20,921 nucleotides of DNA from Candidatus Rokuibacteriota bacterium (GCA_016184305.1 JACPCX010000143.1:1-20921); one strand, 5' to 3'; positions 2,837 through 20,274 are shown, counted from the stretch's first letter. Notes: a model not told the origin generated them from the sequence alone. Made by a program: numbers and translations.

Positions 2837-3265
2837 CTCAGAGGCGCGCCTCCATCCACAGCTCCGCGCGCGGGTTGCCGTTGTAGTCGGCGATCTCGGT
2901 GAAGCCGTGGGCGCGGTAGAGGTGCACCGCCGCCTCGAGCCGCTCGCTGTCCAGCCGCAGCAGGCGGCAGCCGAGGCCGCGCGCCTCGGCGAGACAGCCG
3001 TCCAGGAGGGCCGGCCGAGGCCCCGCCCCTGCTGCTCCAGCCGGATCCACATGCGCTTGAGCTCGCCCACGCCCGGGGCGAGGAGGCGGACGCCCGCGGT
3101 GCCGACCACGGTGCCCGCGGGATCCACCACGAGCGGCATCACGCCGCGCGTGCCGTCGTAGATCTCCTGCCAGCGGGCGATGTCGCGGTCGAGCCCGTCG
3201 CCGTCGAGCGGCTCGCCGAGGAAGTCGAGATAGGCGGCGAGCTCGCGGGCCACGGCATCGTGATC
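2837..3265. repeat. Direct repeat copy A (~430 bp) of GNAT coding sequence
   Basis: Manual alignment to 8888-9320: about 16 substitutions and two small indels. Confidence 0.95.
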
Positions 3266-3283
3266 CACCGGGGTCGCCCTCAC
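2838..3283 (-). pseudogene. GNAT N-acetyltransferase, frameshifted second copy of 8889-9383
   Basis: Aligns to 8888-9320 with a 1-bp deletion at ~3009 and a 3-bp deletion at ~2941. The halves appear in two ORFs (GELKRMWIR..QGRGLGR and LRLDSE..AAVHLYR..GF). Start is tentative (GTG at 3283 after AGGAG). Confidence 0.88.
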
Positions 3284-3582
3284 GTAGCCCGCTCCTGAGG
3301 GCCTCTGTCGACGCTGCCCCTGACCCCCGTCGGCACCCCCGGCCCCGCCCGCGCACTCTCCGCTCACTGCTTGACCGCGAGCCCGCGCCCGCGCGGGACG
3401 ACTCGGGGCCCGCGCGCTTACGATGCCGCTGCTCGTCTTTCGTCCACCTCGAACGGGCCGAACGGGCCCTCCCGGGTCCGGTGCCGGGGTTCGCGGGAGG
3501 CGGCCGGACCTGGCCGGACGCCCGCCGCCCCAGCAGAACTGGCGTTAATCCTTCCTATACCCCCCTCAGGCACATTCCTCCG

Positions 3583-5070
3583 TCAGTAACTCGCCAAGGC
3601 GACGAGCGCGCTGCGCAAGCTAGCCAACCCCTCCACGTCCGCGCGGAGGCGAGCCGTAACAGCAGCCACGGCGCTCTCGGTACCTTGTCTGAGCGCAGGA
3701 ACGTCGTGAGAAACGGATTCGACGACGGGCTCCCGGTCCAAAGACCGCAGGACTTCGGCGTCAACGGCCGGCGGAGCGTCGACCCAAGAGCCATTCGCAT
3801 CCACCAGAAGATTCACGTACTGGGAGTGCCGACGCCCATTGTCCAGGTCGAGGTAAACGATCGCGCGGGCCGACAGTTGGCCACGAGCGCCGGAGGAGCC
3901 AACCAGCACGGCCACGTCGCCCGGTTGCTGAGGCCGCTGGAAGTGGCGGATCAGAGCGTCCACGAGAGGGTGCCCAAGGCCCAAGAGCTGGACGTTCTTG
4001 CGGCGCATGGCGAGATCGCGATCGAAGGCGACGTCACGGTAGCTCCGAACCACACCGGGATAGCCCATCAGCGGTTCAGGAGTCTCGATCTGGACGAGGG
4101 GGCCGCTCGGCACGAAGGCTCCACCGAGCCGCAGGATCGCGCGCTCGACAAAGAGCCCCAGGTGCTCCAGGGTGAAGTGGCCGCGGAGCGTCCGGTAGTG
4201 CTCCAGATTGAAGGCGTCCAGATCCTGAGTGAGAGCCCGGAGCGCCTCGCTGGCTTCACGTGCTCGCTCGATCGCGTCGGCCATCTCCCGCTCGGTCCGC
4301 TTGTAGTCGGGATCCACGAGCGCCTTCTTGTACAGGTCCTGGTAATTCGGCGCAGTGCCGAGGAAGCCGAGGATCTCCGAGCGAAAATCCTCGACCACCT
4401 CGCCGGTCACGGGATCAAGCTTCCCGATGGCCCCGGCGATCTCGAGCAGCTTCTCCTCGAGCAAGCGGTAGATCCGTTCCTCGACCGTATCCTCGGCGAC
4501 CAGGTTGTACACCTGGACTGTATCCTGCTGCCCGTAGCGATGGATGCGGCCGATCCGCTGCTCCACCGCCATCGGGTTCCACGGCAGGTCATAGTTGAAC
4601 AGGATGCGACCGATCTGGAGATTGATGCCCTCGCCGCCGGCCGAGGTGCAGATGAGGAACCTGGCGCCGGCCTCGTCCCAGAAGGCCTCGATCGCGGCGA
4701 TCTTGTCGTCCAGCGGGCCGCCCTTGATCGTGGCAATCCGCGCCCCGCCGTAGATCTTGCCGAGCTCCTCGCGCAGAAACTCCAGGGTCTCGCGGTACTG
4801 TGTGAAGATCACGAATCGCTCCGACGGGTTCTGCCGGCGTAGCTGCTCGAGCGCGCGCACCAGGGTGTCGTACTTCCGGTCTGTGCCATCAGGGACGAGC
4901 CCGAGCAGGTCACGCACCTTGGCGGCCTCGTCGGGAATGTCGGAGTCTGCGTACACTCCCTCGTCGCCCTCCTCGTCACCGTCGAGAGCCCAGGACGTGC
5001 TCTCCTCTTCTGCCCGGCGAGCCAGCCGTTGCTTGACCTGGGCCACGACGGCGTCGGCCTCGGCACGCAA
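3583..5070 (-). pseudogene. SNF2/SF2 helicase, C-terminal half (HelicC domain plus C-terminal extension); N-terminal ATPase lobe deleted
   Basis: FVIFTQYRETLEFL, LICTSAGGEGINLQ, NYDLPWNPMAVEQRIGRIHRYGQ, YNLVAEDTVEERI. No Walker A or DEAH in the frame. Confidence 0.9.
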
Positions 5071-5071
5071 G

Positions 5072-5175
5072 GAGCTGGATGAGCGACCAGAACTGGTAGG
5101 GATCGCCCTGGTGTGGGGTGGCCGACAGGAAGAGCAGGTCTCGGGCGTGATGGCGAAGCTGTTCCGCGAGCCGGT
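5072..5175 (-). pseudogene. Isolated internal SNF2 helicase fragment (motif III)
   Basis: RLAEQLRHHARDLLFLSATPHQGDPYQFWSLIQLL; LSATPHQG is SNF2 motif III. It is out of frame with the downstream helicase half. Confidence 0.85.
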
Positions 5176-5221
5176 TGATCTCGACGATGGGGAAGCCTTC
5201 CTCGATGGCCCGTTTCATCAA
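5166..5221 (-). pseudogene. N-terminal stub of a DUF1156-type adenine DNA methyltransferase
   Basis: MKRAIEEGFPIVEINRLA matches the remembered (K/R)xIExxFPxxExN start of DUF1156 methylases, and lies where that gene is expected. Only ~18 codons remain. Confidence 0.6.
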
Positions 5222-5233
5222 CTGTTCCGGACG

Positions 5234-5431
5234 TCAGCCCGCGACTTCCTGCCGCAGGATCCCCTCGAGGCTCGCCTCGCCGCGCTCCACGGCGAGGACT
5301 GCCCGGAGGATGTGCAGCTCCGCCATGGTCTCGTCGTCCGGATACTCGGCGCGGATGATGGCTGTTAAGCGCTCGAGCTTGTCCCGGGCGATGCCGGCGC
5401 GGTCAGCGGCAGTCTTGTAATCGAATAACAT
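5234..5431 (-). CDS. 65-aa helical hypothetical protein, candidate antitoxin/partner of the PIN protein
   Basis: GAGGAGG RBS overlapping the PIN stop region; MLFDYKTAADRAGI...EYPDDETMAELHILRA; uninterrupted frame. Confidence 0.7.
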   Translation of the reverse strand: MLFDYKTAADRAGIARDKLERLTAIIRAEYPDDETMAELHILRAVLAVERGEASLEGILRQEVAG

Positions 5432-5444
5432 CTCTCTGGCCTCC

Positions 5445-5894
5445 TCACACTTCCGGCGGGGCGAGGATCTCGATCGACGGGTACCCCGCGAGGACGTTGA
5501 CCTCGTTGACCAGGGCCCGGCGCCGTCGGTTCACCAGGTGGCGGAAGCTCCAGCTCACAAGGATATCCTGCCGCGCGGCGACCGCAATCGCCACGTGGAG
5601 GGCGTCAATGGCCGTCGCCGCGGAGAACACACCGCGCCCCACATACTCCCGTGCGAGATCACGGGCTTCTCGCTCGATCGGGAGACTCAGGAAATCGCCG
5701 ACCAGGGCGAGGAGCCGCTCCCGGAGAGCGGAGTCGGCCGTGGCGCGGACCTCCGTGAGGGTCAGCTCCGAGATGGCGACCTCGTAGCCCGCGAGCCGTT
5801 CCCAGAACTCGAGCGTGGCCCGCCGGCGCTCGGGAAGCCGGTCGTCCACGTGGGCGCTGATCACCGAGGTGTCGAGGTAGAGCCGGAGCCTCAC
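5445..5894 (-). CDS. PIN-domain (VapC-like) nuclease, 149 aa
   Basis: LYLDTSVISA, ISELTLTEV, DALHVAIA, ILVSWSFRHLVN. The GTG start at 5894 overlaps the TGA of the upstream PglZ-like gene (GTGA). Confidence 0.88.
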   Translation of the reverse strand: MRLRLYLDTSVISAHVDDRLPERRRATLEFWERLAGYEVAISELTLTEVRATADSALRERLLALVGDFLSLPIEREARDLAREYVGRGVFSAATAIDALHVAIAVAARQDILVSWSFRHLVNRRRRALVNEVNVLAGYPSIEILAPPEV

Positions 5895-6818
5895 GGCCGG
5901 GCCGGCTCCAGGACGATCCAGGGGGTCAGCATTTCCATCATTGAGAGCCCGCCGTGCTTGTACAGGCGAGCCCCGGCGGGGCCCGGCGGGTGGGTCTGGA
6001 CACGCCCACGCACCATGGCCACCTGCCTGCTCGCGATGACGGCAAGATCGCGGTGGGCGGGTGGCTCCTGCCCAGGCTCGACTTGGCGACGAGCAGCCCG
6101 GTCCGAAGAACACGTACCCGTGATCGCTCGTCACCACGATCGTTCGTCCAGGTGGCACGGCCTGCACGGTGTTCCGCCAGAAGGCTTCGAGCCGCCGGTG
6201 AAGCTCTGCGAAGTGGTTCGCGAAGCGGGCACCGGAGTCCTGGTAGGTCTGGTCGGGGAAGGCCGACCAGAGGCACAGCGCGGGGCAGTCCGGCGGGAGC
6301 TGGTGACGCTGGCCCTCGTGGCCATAATAGAACGTCTCGATCCCCGCCTGCCGAAGCTCGCGGCGGCCCAGGAGCTGGGAGGGCGAGACGCGCCCGGCCT
6401 GGAGCCGCTGGGCTACGAAATCAATCGTCTCGCTTGGCACGGCGGCAGTCGCCACGTCCACCTGGCGGGCGGAGAAACCTCCCTCCCTGGCCAGGCGAAG
6501 CACCACTGGGACTTCGCGGAGCGACAGTCCGTCGAAGACCACGGCGGCGCAGGGCTGCTGGCGCTCGAGGAACACGCGGAGATGACGGTCACCGGGAGGG
6601 TCGGTCAGCAGCTCGTCGTAGATCCGGGGCGCGGCCGCGGCAAGCACTTCTTCCATCTCGTTCACATCACGCTCGCCCCGGTTCAGGAACTCAGCGGCCC
6701 CGAGGTCCTCGTAGCGCCCTGATGACCAAACCTCGTCGAGCAGCCAGTGTCGAAGCCAATCCAGGCGGGCTCCGGGTGCAGTGAGGCGGTCGAAACCCTC
6801 CCGGCTAAGACTGGGCAC
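5891..6818 (-). pseudogene. Stand-alone PglZ-like alkaline-phosphatase-superfamily protein, frameshifted at ~6088-6092
   Basis: VVFDGLSLRE, AVPSET and IVVTSDHGY in the first frame. YKHGGLSMMEMLTPWIVLEPARP* lies in the shifted frame, with stop at 5891-5893. These are the PglZ core motifs. Confidence 0.8.
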
Positions 6819-8424
6819 GGTCCTCTGCGGCCGGGAGCAGCAGGATCAGGTCGGCGCTGTATTCGGCGTGCGGGACGTTGGGCAAGCGCTCGATCATCTG
6901 CTCGACCTGGGCCTTGGACAGCTCTTCCTCCTTTGTGATCGCGATCTCGATCGTCAGCGACCCTGGACCGGCGAGGCTGCCGCGATAGGCGGCCGGCAAG
7001 CTGCTCAGATCGCCAGTGGTCTGCTGGAGGAAGACGGTAAACCTCGCTCTGTGCACGCGTGCCGAGGCGTGTTCCTGCAGGAGCGCGGCAACCGCCTGGC
7101 GCAGAGGCCCGATCCCAGTCTGCGAGCCGGTGCGCACAGGGAGCTGCTCGCCCTCGGTGAGCGTAGGCCGCTGCCCACGTTCTGGTGGCACCTGGCCCGC
7201 CACCGGCGAAGAGGGTGTTCCAGTTCTCGGTGGCGATGATGGCAGGGCTTCGGAGCCCTCGAAGGGCTCGGCGACGACCGCATCCAACAGCTCCGCATCG
7301 CTCAGCGCCGGGTCGGCCCCGCAGAAGTTACTCCGGCTGTGGTAGATGCCGAGCTTCCGCTCGCGGCAGAGGGAGCGGACAGCCCGTGTGAGCGAGCCCG
7401 CGTGGGTGGGAACGGGGAAGCCCAACGTTGATCGGTACTCACGATCGATCTCGCGGACGCCCTGCCCCTTCACCTGGGCGAGCCGGGCTTCCAGGTGCTC
7501 GGCCAGGAGCTGCGGTGGATAGACGTGCTGGCTGAGGAAGATCGCGACGTCCTCCCTCGAGGCGGCAGTGCCGAGGGGCTCCTCCTCGATCTCGAGGCCG
7601 CCGGCGCCAGCGATGAACCTGTTGAGGTAGCTCCCGATGACGGGCGCCACCGAATCGGCCTTGAAATCGAGATAGTTCTCGAACGCGCGGTGAAGCACGA
7701 CGCGGGCGCGATCCTCGGCTTGGGCGAACTGCACACGGCAGGCCGCCACTCGCTTGAGCGTCGCGCCGGGCTCCTGCTGGTCGCTGTAGATGCTGGCGAA
7801 CAAGGTCACCTGAACCGACCGGTTGGCCCACTCCGAGAGCATCTGGAGGAATGCGATGTTCTGGGCCCTGACTGCGGCGTCGGCGAGGACGCGAACGCCC
7901 TGCTCCAGCTCGTCGAATATCAGGACTACCTGGCGCCCGGCGAGCGCCGACTCGACCTCGGTGAGGCTCGGCTGGACCATGCTGCGTGGAGGGCGCTGCC
8001 CTTTCACCTGCTCGAAAACGAAATCCCAGATGGACGAGAGAGGCAGGTCAGTGAACTTGTTGACGACCGGCGTTACCCTCTCCGGAAGCCGGCACCTCAA
8101 CCCGTGCCGGTCGAGCCACCGGCGCGCTTCGTTCGGGCTTCTGAACAGGTGGTAGACGAGGAGGAGCAGGTGGGACTTGCCACTACCCTTCAACCCTTCG
8201 AAGAGAAAGAGGCCCGGGGCGCCGGCTTTCTCGCCGAACCGCTGGTCGAGCAGGCTTACCACCTGGCGGACGTCGGCGGTCGGGTACGTGAGGCTGAAGA
8301 AGACGTCCGGCCTCGCCTCGAGACGCTTCCGGCGCGTGTCCTTGAGGTTGGCGAGATCGATGATGCCTTCGATCTCGCCGGCCAGCGTCTCGGCGCGCGG
8401 TCTGAGATACGCGGCGTAACTCAT
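6805..8424 (-). CDS. DUF499-type AAA+ ATPase (BrxC/PglY-related), probably shortened by an in-frame internal deletion near 7620
   Basis: P..FFSLTYPT, Walker A GLKGSGKSHLLL..YH, Walker B VLIFDELE. 539 aa is short for the family, and the usual YPF.P segment after the ATPase core is not seen. Confidence 0.8.
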   Translation of the reverse strand: MSYAAYLRPRAETLAGEIEGIIDLANLKDTRRKRLEARPDVFFSLTYPTADVRQVVSLLDQRFGEKAGAPGLFLFEGLKGSGKSHLLLLVYHLFRSPNEARRWLDRHGLRCRLPERVTPVVNKFTDLPLSSIWDFVFEQVKGQRPPRSMVQPSLTEVESALAGRQVVLIFDELEQGVRVLADAAVRAQNIAFLQMLSEWANRSVQVTLFASIYSDQQEPGATLKRVAACRVQFAQAEDRARVVLHRAFENYLDFKADSVAPVIGSYLNRFIAGAGGLEIEEEPLGTAASREDVAIFLSQHVYPPQLLAEHLEARLAQVKGQGVREIDREYRSTLGFPVPTHAGSLTRAVRSLCRERKLGIYHSRSNFCGADPALSDAELLDAVVAEPFEGSEALPSSPPRTGTPSSPVAGQVPPERGQRPTLTEGEQLPVRTGSQTGIGPLRQAVAALLQEHASARVHRARFTVFLQQTTGDLSSLPAAYRGSLAGPGSLTIEIAITKEEELSKAQVEQMIERLPNVPHAEYSADLILLLPAAEDRAQS

Positions 8425-8543: not shown

Positions 8544-8888
8544 CTACATTGCCCTCGCAGCCTCCCGGGGACCTTCGTGGGCCCCGGGCAGGCTGCTTCC
8601 GTCCCTGGGGGTACCCTGCGGCACGTGAGGCTCGCCGAGGTCTATCCGGAGCGTGAAGCCAGGTGGGCTACGCAGCTCAGCGAATGCCTCCCCACTCTGA
8701 ATGTGCCAGCCCGAGCTCTCACGCTGAGAAACAAGTCGCCGAATACAATCACGGACAGATTGCCCCTCGTCGAGATCCGCCACCAATGAGTCTGGGGGCG
8801 ACGCGAGGAAGCGGGCTCGCGAGGGCAGTGTTGCGTCCTGGTCGACACGGCGCCGCAAATCGGCAGTATCGAAGACGACATCCCCTCC
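8544..8888 (-). other. Unassigned open frame starting right after the GNAT stop codon; possible 3' remnant of a foreign gene
   Basis: Frame is open from 8888 to 8544 (GGDVVFDTADLRRRVDQD...), with visibly more A/T-ending codons than the flanks. No recognisable motif. Confidence 0.3.
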
Positions 8889-9320
8889 TCAAAGGCGCGC
8901 CTCCATCCACAGCTCCGCGCGCGGATTGCCGTTGTAGTCGGCGATCTCGGTGAAGCCGTAGGCGCGGTAGAGGTGCACCGCCGCCTCGAGCCGCCGCTCG
9001 CTGTCCAGCCGCAGCAGGCGGCAGCCGAGGCCGCGCGCCTCGGCGAGACAGCCGTCCAGGAGCGGCCGGCCGAGGCCCCGCCCCTGATGCTCCGGCCGGA
9101 TCCACATGCGCTTGAGCTCGCCCACGCTGGGCTCGAGGAGCCGGACGCCCGCGGTGCCGACCACGGTGCCCGCGGGATCCACCACGAGCAGCATCACGCC
9201 GCGCGCGCCGTCGTAGATCTCCTGCCAGCGGGCGATGTCGCGGTCGAGCCCGTCGCCGTCGAGCCGCTCGCCGAGGAAGGCGAGGTAGGCCGCGAGCTCG
9301 CGGGCCACGGCATCGTGATC
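8888..9320. repeat. Direct repeat copy B (~433 bp) of GNAT coding sequence
   Basis: Manual alignment to 2837-3265. Confidence 0.95.
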
Positions 9321-9383
9321 GGCTGCGGTTGCCCGCCGGATCAGATATCCGCCAGGCGCGTGCCTAGCGCTTGCGCCTCGCAT
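8889..9383 (-). CDS. GNAT family N-acetyltransferase (intact copy)
   Basis: IRRAT..D, VVGTAGVR, ELKRMWIRPEHQGRGLGR.LL, LRLDS, AVHLYRAYGF. Confidence 0.92.
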   Translation of the reverse strand: MRGASARHAPGGYLIRRATAADHDAVARELAAYLAFLGERLDGDGLDRDIARWQEIYDGARGVMLLVVDPAGTVVGTAGVRLLEPSVGELKRMWIRPEHQGRGLGRPLLDGCLAEARGLGCRLLRLDSERRLEAAVHLYRAYGFTEIADYNGNPRAELWMEARL

Positions 9384-18862: not shown

Positions 18863-19201
18863 TCACGTCCCGAGATCGGCCATCAGCTTTGCCTTCCGCT
18901 CTTCCAGGCCGGCGACCTGCGTCTTCAGCCGCTTCAGCTCGCGGTTGATGCCTCCCAGCTCGGTCTTGGCCTGCTGGTCCTTCAGGTAGTCGTCGCCGTG
19001 CTTCTTCTTGACCAGCGCTTCCACCTCGCGCCGGAGGAGCCGCAACCACGGGTTGCCGTGCATCGAAGCCTCCCGGTAGTGGAGCTTGCCAGCCCGGATT
19101 GCCTGGACGATCTCGTCCTGCGTCAACCCGAACTCCTTCCGCGCGGTCTTGTCGCTGAGCGTCGCGCCCTTGCGCTGCCACTCGGAATCCAGGTCGTCCA
19201 T
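18863..19201 (-). CDS. Hypothetical protein, 112 aa; putative HTH-like N-terminus plus coiled coil
   Basis: MDDLDSEW..KGATLSDKTARKEFGLTQDEIVQAIRAGKL...GNPWLRLLRREVE...INRELKRLKTQVAGLEERK; good codon bias. Confidence 0.8.
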   Translation of the reverse strand: MDDLDSEWQRKGATLSDKTARKEFGLTQDEIVQAIRAGKLHYREASMHGNPWLRLLRREVEALVKKKHGDDYLKDQQAKTELGGINRELKRLKTQVAGLEERKAKLMADLGT

Positions 19202-19410
19202 CGGTTCGTCTCGTTCGCGCCTCGCTGCGTGGTAACGGTCAGCGCCGGAAGCGTCGCCGTTGTCGTGACCCATGCAGGCCAGACAGTGCCATACGGAGGC
19301 CGACCGACGCAAGGGTCTTTCGCGCTCGAGTAGGTCACGATGGCCGCGCCTTGGCGGCGCGCAGCGCCGGCTCCGCCGCTTCGCGGAACCAGGCGGGTAG
19401 GAGCGGGCGA

Positions 19411-20109
19411 TAGCGCGGCGCTGATCTCGGTCGGGTAGCGCACCACCCACTCCGTGTCTTCCGCATCGAGGAAGAAGTGCAGGCGCGCCAGGGCACTCTC
19501 GAGGAGGTCGCGCTCGCCGAGAAGCGCCAGCTCCTGCGGGGTGAGCGGATAGCTCAGGAGGTCGTCGTCCACGAGCCCGGGCGGGCGCAGGCTCGCGAGG
19601 CGGTCGTCGATGAGCGCCAGCGCCATGTCGAGACGGCTCACGTCGTCCTCGAAGAGGATCCGGTACTCGTCGGCGCTGCCGAGCCGAGGCAGCGGTCCCC
19701 CGAACCACTTCGTCATCTGGTCGGGGGCGAAGGCCACCGTGAAGACGCGCACGAGCTGGACCTCGAGGTTGTGCGCCTCGTCCACCACGAGCACGCGGCG
19801 CCGCCGGAGCTGTTCGCGCTGCCACTGCCGGAGGGTGAGGAAGTAGGCGGTGTTGGTACAGAAGATGGGGCCGTTCTGGGCAGCCAGCTTCGCGCGCGCA
19901 TAGGGACACTGACAGAAGGGCGCCCGCGGGCGCCGGCACAGCCCGTGGGTCGTGGTCACGCGGGCGGGCGGAGCATACCGCTCGCAGAGGTAGTTCTCGC
20001 GGCCCTTCACGAGCTGTAGCGCGTCGCCGAACTCGCGCTCGTACTGGTCCTGGAGGAGCTTCTGCGAGGTGAGGAGGTAGGCGTCGCCGCTCCAGCGCGC
20101 CAGCGTCAA
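19411..20109 (-). pseudogene. DinG/Rad3-like Fe-S helicase internal fragment
   Basis: LTSQKLLQDQY, VKGRENYLC...C...C.CPY, TNTAYFL, LVVDEAHNLE. Walker A and the C-terminal helicase domain are absent. Confidence 0.85.
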
Positions 20110-20110
20110 G

Positions 20111-20274
20111 CTGGTATTGCTGGGCAATGATCTGCACCATCCACAGTCCTCGTCACGAGAGGTCGCCGCGCTGGCGCCAAACGCCACGCTCATCGAACTC
20201 TGGAAAGGCCCGAGCACCAGCCGGCGGCGAAGAAAGCCGCAGAAGAGTTCCTGGCCAAGCACACGCCGCGCTGA
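20111..20274 (+). pseudogene. C-terminal remnant of a probable alpha/beta hydrolase, frameshifted at ~20208
   Basis: LVLLGNDLHHPQSSSREVAALAPNATLIELWK / EHQPAAKKAAEEFLAKHTPR*. Confidence 0.6.

Follow-up and report, generated by a model that had tools for sequence, protein, structure and literature searches.

A Probable Decayed Type-3 BREX-Related Defense Operon With an Intact PIN-Domain Gene Pair in Candidatus Rokuibacteriota

Introduction

Bacteriophage exclusion (BREX)-Related systems, hereafter BR systems, are centered on a DUF499 ATPase and were defined computationally, in three types (Rakesh & Krishnan, Nucleic Acids Res 2026; PMC12839542). According to their description, Type 3 is found in 569 taxa and combines the DUF499 ATPase with a DUF1156 methylase, a nuclease-less BrxHII-like helicase, and a stand-alone, active PglZ; an inactive STAND protein (iSTAND) is present in 82% of these taxa, and PIN, HEPN, and Schlafen RNases in such loci are listed as auxiliary or backup effectors (PMC12839542). 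In our literature search, no source other than the defining paper and its preprint used the term "Type-3 BR". Here we describe a stretch of 20,921 bp from a Candidatus Rokuibacteriota bacterium (GCA_016184305.1, JACPCX010000143.1; "the window," which is the whole contig), where positions 3583-8424 very probably hold the decayed remnant of a Type-3 BR defense operon that reached the lineage by horizontal transfer. This is ordinary gene decay, not a new system, and the kind is already published. The part that likely still works is limited to a PIN-domain gene and the 65-aa gene behind it, both of which are whole.

The intact relatives of the locus share homologous ATPase, methylase, SNF2 helicase, and PglZ catalytic domain with Type-3 BREX (BrxF, BrxC, PglXI, BrxHII, PglZ, BrxA); the best PADLOC model for the helicase, in the window as in the relatives, is BrxHI|BrxHII, and the relatives' methylase matches PglX|PglXI. 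BrxC is ~1200 aa long. In contrast, the ATPase of the relatives has ~870 aa, their methylase carries a DUF1156 N-terminus, no BrxA was seen, and their PglZ is a single domain of ~325 aa versus 855-890 residues in the solved or modeled PglZ proteins that it matched. Likeness extends to Hma (PADLOC HmaA, HmaB, and HmaC), which corresponds to Type-1 BR: one relative's locus, L008, matches HmaC (E 2.8e-13), HmaB (E 1.2e-43), and HmaA (E 2.9e-105). Hma is described as being without PglZ and as usually having a nuclease fused to the helicase (PMC12839542), whereas the relatives here have PglZ and no nuclease domain was found in them by Pfam. In MANTIS (Gao_RL), which corresponds to Type-2 BR, an AAA+ ATPase and a small co-regulator are reported to load and activate the methylase while a helicase-nuclease restricts; the nuclease-helicase is of the PLD kind, PglZ is absent, and the co-regulator MtsB is called unique to MANTIS by its authors (bioRxiv 10.64898/2026.09.23.753747). 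MANTIS is the only BR-type system with a worked-out mechanism and, by analogy, the best available model for the intact relatives.

The composition of those relatives fits the published definition of Type-3 BR as given in PMC12839542, embedded RNase cargo included. The window copy differs: its methylase and a small gene are deleted, and its ATPase, PglZ, and helicase are broken. A first-pass annotation, made by a model from the window's sequence, had expected DUF3780 as a usual companion of such loci, but DUF3780 belongs to the Type-2 subtype, and its absence here is therefore expected, not unusual. The same annotation had cautioned that DUF499-PglZ loci might already be known computationally, as indeed they are, under the name Type-3 BR (PMC12839542).

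The Probably Decayed Operon

Positions 3583-8424 are exactly filled by four co-oriented minus-strand open reading frames (ORFs) of 539, 457, 65, and 495 aa, in a window whose G+C content is about 65-74%. The first-pass annotation had read them as a hybrid operon of six co-oriented, overlapping or closely spaced genes, in the order DUF499 ATPase, mini-PglZ, PIN, 65-aa protein, DUF1156 methylase, and SNF2 helicase. The orientation and spacing are as it said, and the hybrid architecture is real in intact relatives, but the window itself is not a working six-gene operon. Among the motifs that it cited, Walker A and B, DG, PSET, SDHG, HGGLS, the PIN acidic residues, and Helicase_C with motif III can all be located, although HGGLS is out of frame and SNF2 motifs I and II are absent. 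The window copy carries at least four deletions. The methylase, a small adaptor gene, and the ATP-binding half of SNF2 are gone, as is the middle of the ATPase, and PglZ is frameshifted; the locus can therefore carry out neither methylation nor restriction. Searches of the window's own ORFs with Pfam and PADLOC gave no DUF499 and no PglZ match, so the family assignments are taken from intact relatives and from fold comparison.

The first ORF (6805..8424, minus strand, 539 aa) is a truncated DUF499-type AAA+ ATPase (BrxC/MtsA-like), recognized from its Walker A and B motifs and from alignment to homologues; besides these motifs, it keeps the C-terminal ~270 residues. An in-frame deletion of 978 bp, with its junction at 7617-7624, has removed residues ~273-598 (326 codons) of the ~867-aa relatives. 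Residues 1-268 of the window protein align to residues 5-272 of an 867-aa relative, P0003, and residues 264-539 to its residues 594-867; when the relatives' ATPase was searched against the window by tblastn, residues 1-271 and 607-870 matched, and the relatives' PglZ matched in two frames. A 541-aa protein, P0073, is 96% identical to the window protein, to which it aligns in the C-terminal half only, and holds the missing middle. An undeleted copy lies on a public 3.9-kb contig (L004), 97-98% identical in DNA to the window, whose bases 762-1731 are absent from the window. A large protein collection contained 346 homologues of the ATPase; among the 120 listed, nearly all are 837-919 aa long and none shares the window's deletion. 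The assignment of the ATPase to DUF499 is probable for the relatives, which match at a distance, and is not reached by the window form, a deletion derivative. In the relatives, PADLOC gave DUF499 (E 4.6e-16) beside the HmaC match of L008, P0003 matched NCBIfam DUF499_antiphage over residues 283-535 (E 8.3e-15, far below the curated cut-off), and Pfam PF04465 was precomputed for 2 of the 120 listed homologues. The window ATPase reached only a sub-threshold Pfam AAA_22 match (E 0.0044) and PADLOC HmaC (E 1.3e-4), because the residues that match DUF499, 283-535, are those that were deleted.

Three-frame translation showed the 457-aa ORF (5445-6818, minus strand) to be a shifted PglZ frame that runs on into a PIN frame. 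The stand-alone PglZ is a pseudogene (5891..6818, minus strand) with its first 245 codons in frame and its original stop at 5891-5893. Its DG, PSET, and SDHG motifs lie within the first 245 residues of the ORF and HGGLS in another frame: 59 bp that L004 possesses are deleted between 6082 and 6081, and the resulting frameshift, ahead of the HGG motif, costs the window PglZ its HGG metal ligand. Microhomology at the ATPase and PglZ junctions is a few bases at most. The first-pass annotation had recognized the problem in its remark on a "repaired frame"; the stand-alone PglZ behind the ATPase that it proposed is present in the relatives (~325 aa), where it appears catalytically competent from its sequence, and is lacking in that form in the window. 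In the alignment of the relatives' PglZ, the metal and nucleophile motifs are conserved; D96, D232, H233, and H308 are invariant and T131 nearly so. Profile matches of these proteins are weak (Pfam E 0.0027, PADLOC E 1.2e-4, NCBIfam BREX_PglZ_2 E 0.0018), as was a search of the alignment profile against PDB sequences, in which an unrelated designed protein came first (E 2.9e-4) and PglZ and PorX rows followed at E 0.036-0.042. The fold is clearer. The L004 orthologue, which is intact, was modeled with AlphaFold2 (pLDDT 89.9, pTM 0.91), and the model had PorX as its best Foldseek match (8tfm_A, E 5.6e-10, TMq 0.62), then BREX PglZ (9zn5_B, E 9.3e-7), with other alkaline-phosphatase-fold enzymes ranking behind these two.

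Less remains of the methylase and the helicase, each of which the first-pass annotation had listed as a gene. For the DUF1156 N6-adenine methylase, only the first ~18 codons persist (5165..5218, minus strand, from tblastn and translation); with the methylases of L013 and L008 as tblastn queries, just residues 1-19 and 17-33 matched, at window positions 5221-5165. No methylase domain is left, and so no N6-adenine methylase with a DUF1156 N-terminus is encoded. The stub is fused in frame to an SNF2 fragment (5069..5173, minus strand, residues ~251-285, the motif III region), which is 80% identical over 35 residues to the SNF2 proteins of L008 and L013 and keeps the SATP piece of motif III. The rest is a C-terminal piece of the helicase, the 495-aa ORF (3583..5070, minus strand, residues ~448-941), recognized by Pfam, PADLOC, and tblastn and containing Helicase_C (Pfam E 3.8e-19) and C-terminal domains. 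Relatives' SNF2 proteins matched by tblastn with residues ~249-283 at 5173-5069 and with residues ~448-941 (of ~947) at 5064-3592. In L013, motif I (GLGKT) is at position 134 and motif II (DEAH) at 230; since both positions fall in the missing part, the window helicase has neither motif. PADLOC aligned the 495-aa ORF to positions 408-754 of the 933-position BrxHI|BrxHII profile, which therefore also marks it as a C-terminal piece, and a nuclease-free BrxHII-like Swi2/Snf2 helicase is likewise not encoded by the window as it stands.

Intact Relatives and Their Presumed Function

We fetched 129 loci of relatives, 49 from species genomes and 80 from metagenomes; the two sets are not independent, because some metagenome loci duplicate genome loci. 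In intact relatives the order on one strand is ATPase, PglZ, a slot, methylase, a gene of ~143 codons, a second slot, and SNF2. PglZ lies at most 300 bp from the ATPase in 41/45 genome loci and 59/59 metagenome loci with 1 kb or more of downstream sequence; in two of the four exceptions from genomes PglZ is 341-706 bp distant, and the other two (L037, L044) lack it. The methylase is present in 27/27 genome and 20/21 metagenome loci with at least 7 kb after PglZ, and with at least 9 kb after PglZ both SNF2 and the ~143-aa gene are present in 15/15 and 11/13, respectively. These counts bear out the co-occurrence of ATPase and PglZ homologues with a methylase and an SNF2 helicase that the first-pass annotation had predicted. 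Of the six-gene order whose conservation it proposed to examine, ATPase, PglZ, methylase, and SNF2 keep their places, with the ~143-aa gene ahead of SNF2; the PIN and 65-aa genes are a feature of the closest clade, in a slot that is otherwise variable. The relatives' methylase matches Pfam N6_N4_Mtase and DUF1156, HmaB as noted above, and PglX|PglXI (E 1.8e-30). Their helicase, of ~947 aa, has SNF2-rel_dom and Helicase_C and no nuclease domain by Pfam, and matches BrxHI|BrxHII with E 1e-105. The ~143-aa protein, whose gene is deleted in the window, was modeled with pLDDT 90.3 and is probably the iSTAND of PMC12839542.

By homology, the DUF499-type AAA+ ATPase of an intact system would scaffold and load the DUF1156 N6-adenine methylase, which would mark host DNA. 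The BrxHII-like SNF2 motor would act together with the stand-alone PglZ phosphodiesterase on unmarked DNA, and the ~143-aa protein, a degenerate P-loop protein, could serve as an adaptor.

The PIN Gene, Its 65-aa Neighbor, and the Cargo Slot

The intact PIN-domain gene (5445..5894, minus strand, 149 aa) encodes a VapC-like putative RNase toxin and starts where the HGG-carrying PglZ frame stops. Pfam finds the PIN domain at residues 314-417 of the 457-aa ORF (E 6.1e-7). The protein has 715 homologue clusters, and among the matches listed nearly all are 145-155 aa long. Of the conserved positions, the acidic D8, E43, D97, and D110 are present in the window protein, and the near-invariant N116 is replaced by Ser. 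Behind it lies an intact gene for a putative antitoxin or partner of 65 aa (5234..5431, minus strand), identified from homologues and from an interface model. It has 47 homologue clusters, 38 of them with exactly 65 aa and named at most "hypothetical protein"; it matched no Pfam or NCBIfam family, and no RHH, AbrB, or HTH match was found. The model of the interface between the two proteins scored 0.92 against 0.00 for the best control, with three runs sharing at least 94% of the contacts and a partner pLDDT of at least 86; the mark used was reached by 116/157 solved complexes and 2/215 mismatched pairs. In the model, PIN residues 9-10, 47-48, 96-97, and 115-119, around the acidic site, face the invariant L39, H40, L42, and R43 of the 65-aa protein. 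The two look like a toxin-first toxin-antitoxin-like pair, with binding predicted by the model and toxicity and neutralization presumed. The resemblance to type II VapBC toxin-antitoxin systems lies in the PIN toxin with its conserved acidic site and in the small partner predicted to cover that site. Unlike in VapBC, the toxin gene here comes first, and the partner matches no Pfam or NCBIfam family and has no detected DNA-binding domain; the 65-aa gene lies downstream of PIN, so this is not an arrangement with an upstream DNA-binding antitoxin.

That a PIN module sits ahead of the methylase, as the first-pass annotation had it, is confirmed in relatives: the pair lies between PglZ and methylase in the window and in L005 (the same as genome G215), L056, and G168, and L004, which together with these makes up the closest clade, shows at least PIN up to its contig end. 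No insert separates PglZ from the methylase in L053, the ATPase of which shares 80% identity with P0003. Elsewhere in the phylum, PIN matches with E <= 1e-10 occur in 32/251 genomes, a count that includes the window genome and G217. We examined 28 PIN loci in the phylum, leaving out that of G217 and judging the ORF listing by eye without a shuffled control; of the 27 that could be assessed, 22 are accompanied on the same strand by an ORF of 59-149 aa that starts at most ~70 nt from the PIN stop, two are doubtful, one has a small ORF ~300 nt off, and two have none. Several of these small ORFs form recognizable sequence groups, and the majority of the PIN loci are not adjacent to any BR gene.

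Among 90 loci that include both the end of PglZ and the start of the methylase, 46 have a gap of less than 150 bp between the two genes and 43 one of 400 bp or more. When 73 ORFs in the long gaps were scanned with Pfam, the matches were PIN (in many cases preceded by a small RHH-like ORF), MazF, HicA, HEPN/MNT, HepT, Fic, AbiEii, DUF3800, Schlafen-AlbA_2/HATPase_c_4, OLD-like AAA_15/AAA_21, RelA_SpoT, NACHT, NYN, and an IS200 transposase, as well as Hachiman HamA with helicase pieces. Cargo in the long gaps is thus diverse and unrelated, and the window's PIN pair is one passenger among many. The slot between PglZ and methylase can be described as a landing pad for toxin-antitoxin and small defense cargo.

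Some Type-3 BR loci carry entire additional defense modules in this slot: Hachiman HamA with split helicase pieces (L041, 13682-18652), a GIY-YIG plus RelA_SpoT-like combination (L046, 14480-15993), and a 1608-aa metallophosphatase-NACHT protein (L050, 13698-18524).

Recurrence of Decay in Related Loci

Lesions of other kinds are present in related copies of the same gene set. In G168, PglZ, PIN, and the 65-aa gene are followed by an in-frame fusion of methylase residues 6-107 to SNF2 residues 158-944. L054/L055 contains a fusion of ATPase residues 1-688 to PglZ residues 100-328, and only residues 2-311 of the methylase. In G215/L005, TAG stands in the methylase gene where a Trp codon is conserved; this genome, whose public record is Candidatus Methylomirabilia bacterium, is in the same family as the window genome. 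Three related loci (G168, L054/L055, and G215) therefore have different lesions, with the methylase hit in each. Across the window, G168, and L054/L055, 4/6 deletion junctions are in frame where one in three is expected, a difference that is not significant. Over 900 codons compared between the window and L004, 39 changed synonymously and 25 non-synonymously, too few to separate the intact PIN gene from the broken genes. The comparison suggests only that the majority of the divergence between window and L004 predates the deletions.

One further genome, G018, has three ATPase copies (L165, L166, L168) with 40-43% identity to P0003 and 1-3 internal stops each, mostly TGA. They may come from additional BR loci in decay, or from contamination, for which the value listed for this genome is 9%.

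Alternative Readings

The window belongs to a metagenome-assembled genome (MAG) of 3.2 Mb in 239 contigs, 88.8% complete, and the lesions could in principle be products of assembly, the organism holding an intact Type-3 BR operon from which the assembler dropped pieces by skipping between strain variants. Features of the region would suit such an account. A second variant, ~95% identical over 6120-6263, shows that several strains are present in the samples; contig breaks and loose ends are frequent in the region, a joint between 6263 and 7620 is unexplained, and very close relatives have the genes undeleted (ATPase and PglZ in L004, ATPase in P0073). However, public runs that hold the stretch, mostly groundwater metagenomes, provide independent contigs. 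Four runs from one study (X1-X4; X1 may be the source sample) were compared as Logan contigs. Both helicase/methylase junctions are bridged by X1 record 4 (window 3519-6083) and X3 record 20 (4237-5212), while X1 record 5, X3 record 22, and X4 record 30 reach 7664 and span the ATPase junction. The microhomologies at the junctions, of a few bases, are too short to collapse 31-letter words, and the different large deletions in the same gene set of other genomes and metagenomes indicate that such decay is real in the clade. We consider an assembly artefact very improbable. Since contigs bridge the ATPase and methylase/SNF2 junctions, the lesions exist in the population, the frequency and the linkage of all four aside.

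A 238-bp Logan contig, present in X1, X2, and X3, covers 6120-6263 with 7 differences and is then joined to 7620, the ATPase deletion junction. It is a second strain with a different rearrangement.

If the lesions are real, the locus might still be a streamlined hybrid operon in which a short ATPase, a mini-PglZ, the PIN protein, the 65-aa protein, a methylase, and a helicase cooperate, as the co-oriented, overlapping or closely spaced genes and the in-frame state of both the ATPase deletion and the methylase-stub/SNF2 junction could suggest. Yet the methylase domain is gone, the helicase is without motifs I and II, the frameshift has cost PglZ its HGG ligand, and the 539-aa form of the ATPase has no counterpart with the same deletion among the 120 listed of 346 homologues, which makes a working operon of this kind hardly credible. 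A separate question is whether the PIN and 65-aa genes serve the BR system as a built-in backup effector of abortive infection, as the first-pass annotation had ventured, or are instead autonomous, selfish toxin-antitoxin cargo. PMC12839542 lists PIN, HEPN, and Schlafen RNases within BREX and BR loci and proposes a backup role for them, and the same-strand placement within the operon, seen in the window, L005, L056, and G168, with PIN in L004, agrees with it. In contrast, L053 does without the insert despite its closely related ATPase, 46/90 of the measured gaps are under 150 bp and the 43 long ones hold unrelated cargoes, PIN and small-ORF pairs are found apart from any BR gene in the phylum, and the pair is intact where its host system is dead (window and G168). 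A role as dedicated backup effector is in our view doubtful.

The reading of the locus as a decayed Type-3 BR remnant with a surviving toxin-antitoxin-like pair has points against it as well. Among the 32 listed of ~300 records, no Logan contig crosses 6083-6120, which is uninformative either way, and the 59-bp PglZ junction is seen in the window assembly alone. The MAG comes from samples with more than one strain, so the contig may not represent every cell. The clade was placed in Type-3 BR by composition, which fits when set against the published description. The mechanism of the intact system is drawn entirely by analogy, and an experimental test of any Type-3 BR system was not found in the literature search. 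Fold matches of the ~143-aa protein are weak, all being RecA/AAA+ P-loop domains (Foldseek best E 0.1, VIA best Z 4.8). The interface model was built on our own unpaired alignments, and since the PDB contains VapBC complexes, its score could partly reflect likeness to them.

History and Meaning of the Remnant

On the reading as a decayed Type-3 BR operon, the history of this copy comprises separate deletions that took the middle of the ATPase, frameshifted PglZ, and removed the methylase together with the small gene and the ATP-binding half of SNF2. A single deletion accounts for the joint loss of the methylase and of helicase motif I in the window, and likewise in G168. Such joint loss may be tolerated, or safe, because losing modification alone would leave restriction active; the PIN and 65-aa genes most likely persist because the pair would be self-stabilizing. 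As a defense system the locus carries little weight, given that its kind was named in January 2026 and that this copy is dead. Its value is as a snapshot of the dismantling of a methylation-based defense operon, with clean deletions, little microhomology, and an age that is recent relative to the 2-3% divergence from an intact relative. A PIN gene and an unannotated 65-aa gene that remain intact after their host system has decayed also bear on whether RNases embedded in such loci are "backup effectors" or selfish passengers.

A broader proposal may be put forward tentatively, as a possibility that we do not favor over its negation. The PIN and 65-aa proteins could represent a new toxin-first PIN toxin-antitoxin family, in which the unannotated antitoxin plugs the PIN active site and the pair forms an addiction module that outlives its carrier defense operon. 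In this high-GC clade, Type-3 BR could in addition have been lost repeatedly by damage to the methylase, with one deletion also taking the ATP-binding part of the helicase in two cases, which would point to a recurring cost of the system and to a favored "safe" way of shedding it.

Genomic Context

On either side of the remnant stands one copy of the 3′ part of a GNAT gene, a direct repeat of ~445 bp at 2837-3279 and 8888-9334 with 89-97% identity (repeat families D1-D3 in the repeat search). The right copy is inside an intact GNAT gene at 8889-9383 (minus strand), recognized by Pfam. In the sister genomes G222 and G223, a GGT gene, a single GNAT gene, and a cobalamin adenosyltransferase gene stand in a row. 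G221 (C200, L181), of the same genus, has two GNAT copies between GGT and cobA, around ~9.5 kb of unrelated genes that take the place of the defense remnant and include an FTR1 permease, a multicopper oxidase, an alginate-export-like porin, and a 2-hydroxyacid dehydrogenase. The ATPase is found in 4/251 genomes of the phylum and 0/3 of the same genus. The interval is a variable region and cargo hotspot, and the BR system was acquired horizontally. A second copy of the system was not found in the window's own genome, where the best match had 28% identity (contig C53, E 1e-4). No tRNA genes and no Rfam families were found in the window, and no integrase was seen among the window ORFs scanned, the scan having taken in part of the ORFs.

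Several minor observations concern the borders of this interval. The left GNAT copy (2837-3367) is without the first ~16 codons of the intact gene (8888-9383) and is frameshifted near 3008; a contig from X2 has an extra C behind 3008 that by our reckoning restores the frame, so the frameshift may be strain-specific or an assembly error. To the left of this copy, on the plus strand at 2231-2813, are a BrnT toxin gene (2231-2506, Pfam E 3.5e-25) and a BrnA antitoxin gene (2490-2813, E 1.9e-13), and the same pair stands beside the cobA-side GNAT of G221. A segment of ~125 bp (3275-3400), which separates the left GNAT copy from the stop of the helicase, recurs with 83-93% identity at several sites of G221 and G222, including both ends of the G221 insert. 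This segment has one weak extra copy (73%) in the MAG itself and no Rfam match, and may represent an intergenic repeat that is dispersed and marks the limits of cargo. Farther away, at 18863-20262 on the minus strand, two overlapping ORFs of 425 and 379 aa had no Pfam match in a scan that took in the 379-aa ORF at full length and, of the 425-aa ORF, the final 145 codons; the 379-aa ORF has a DEAH-like segment and may be another broken gene.

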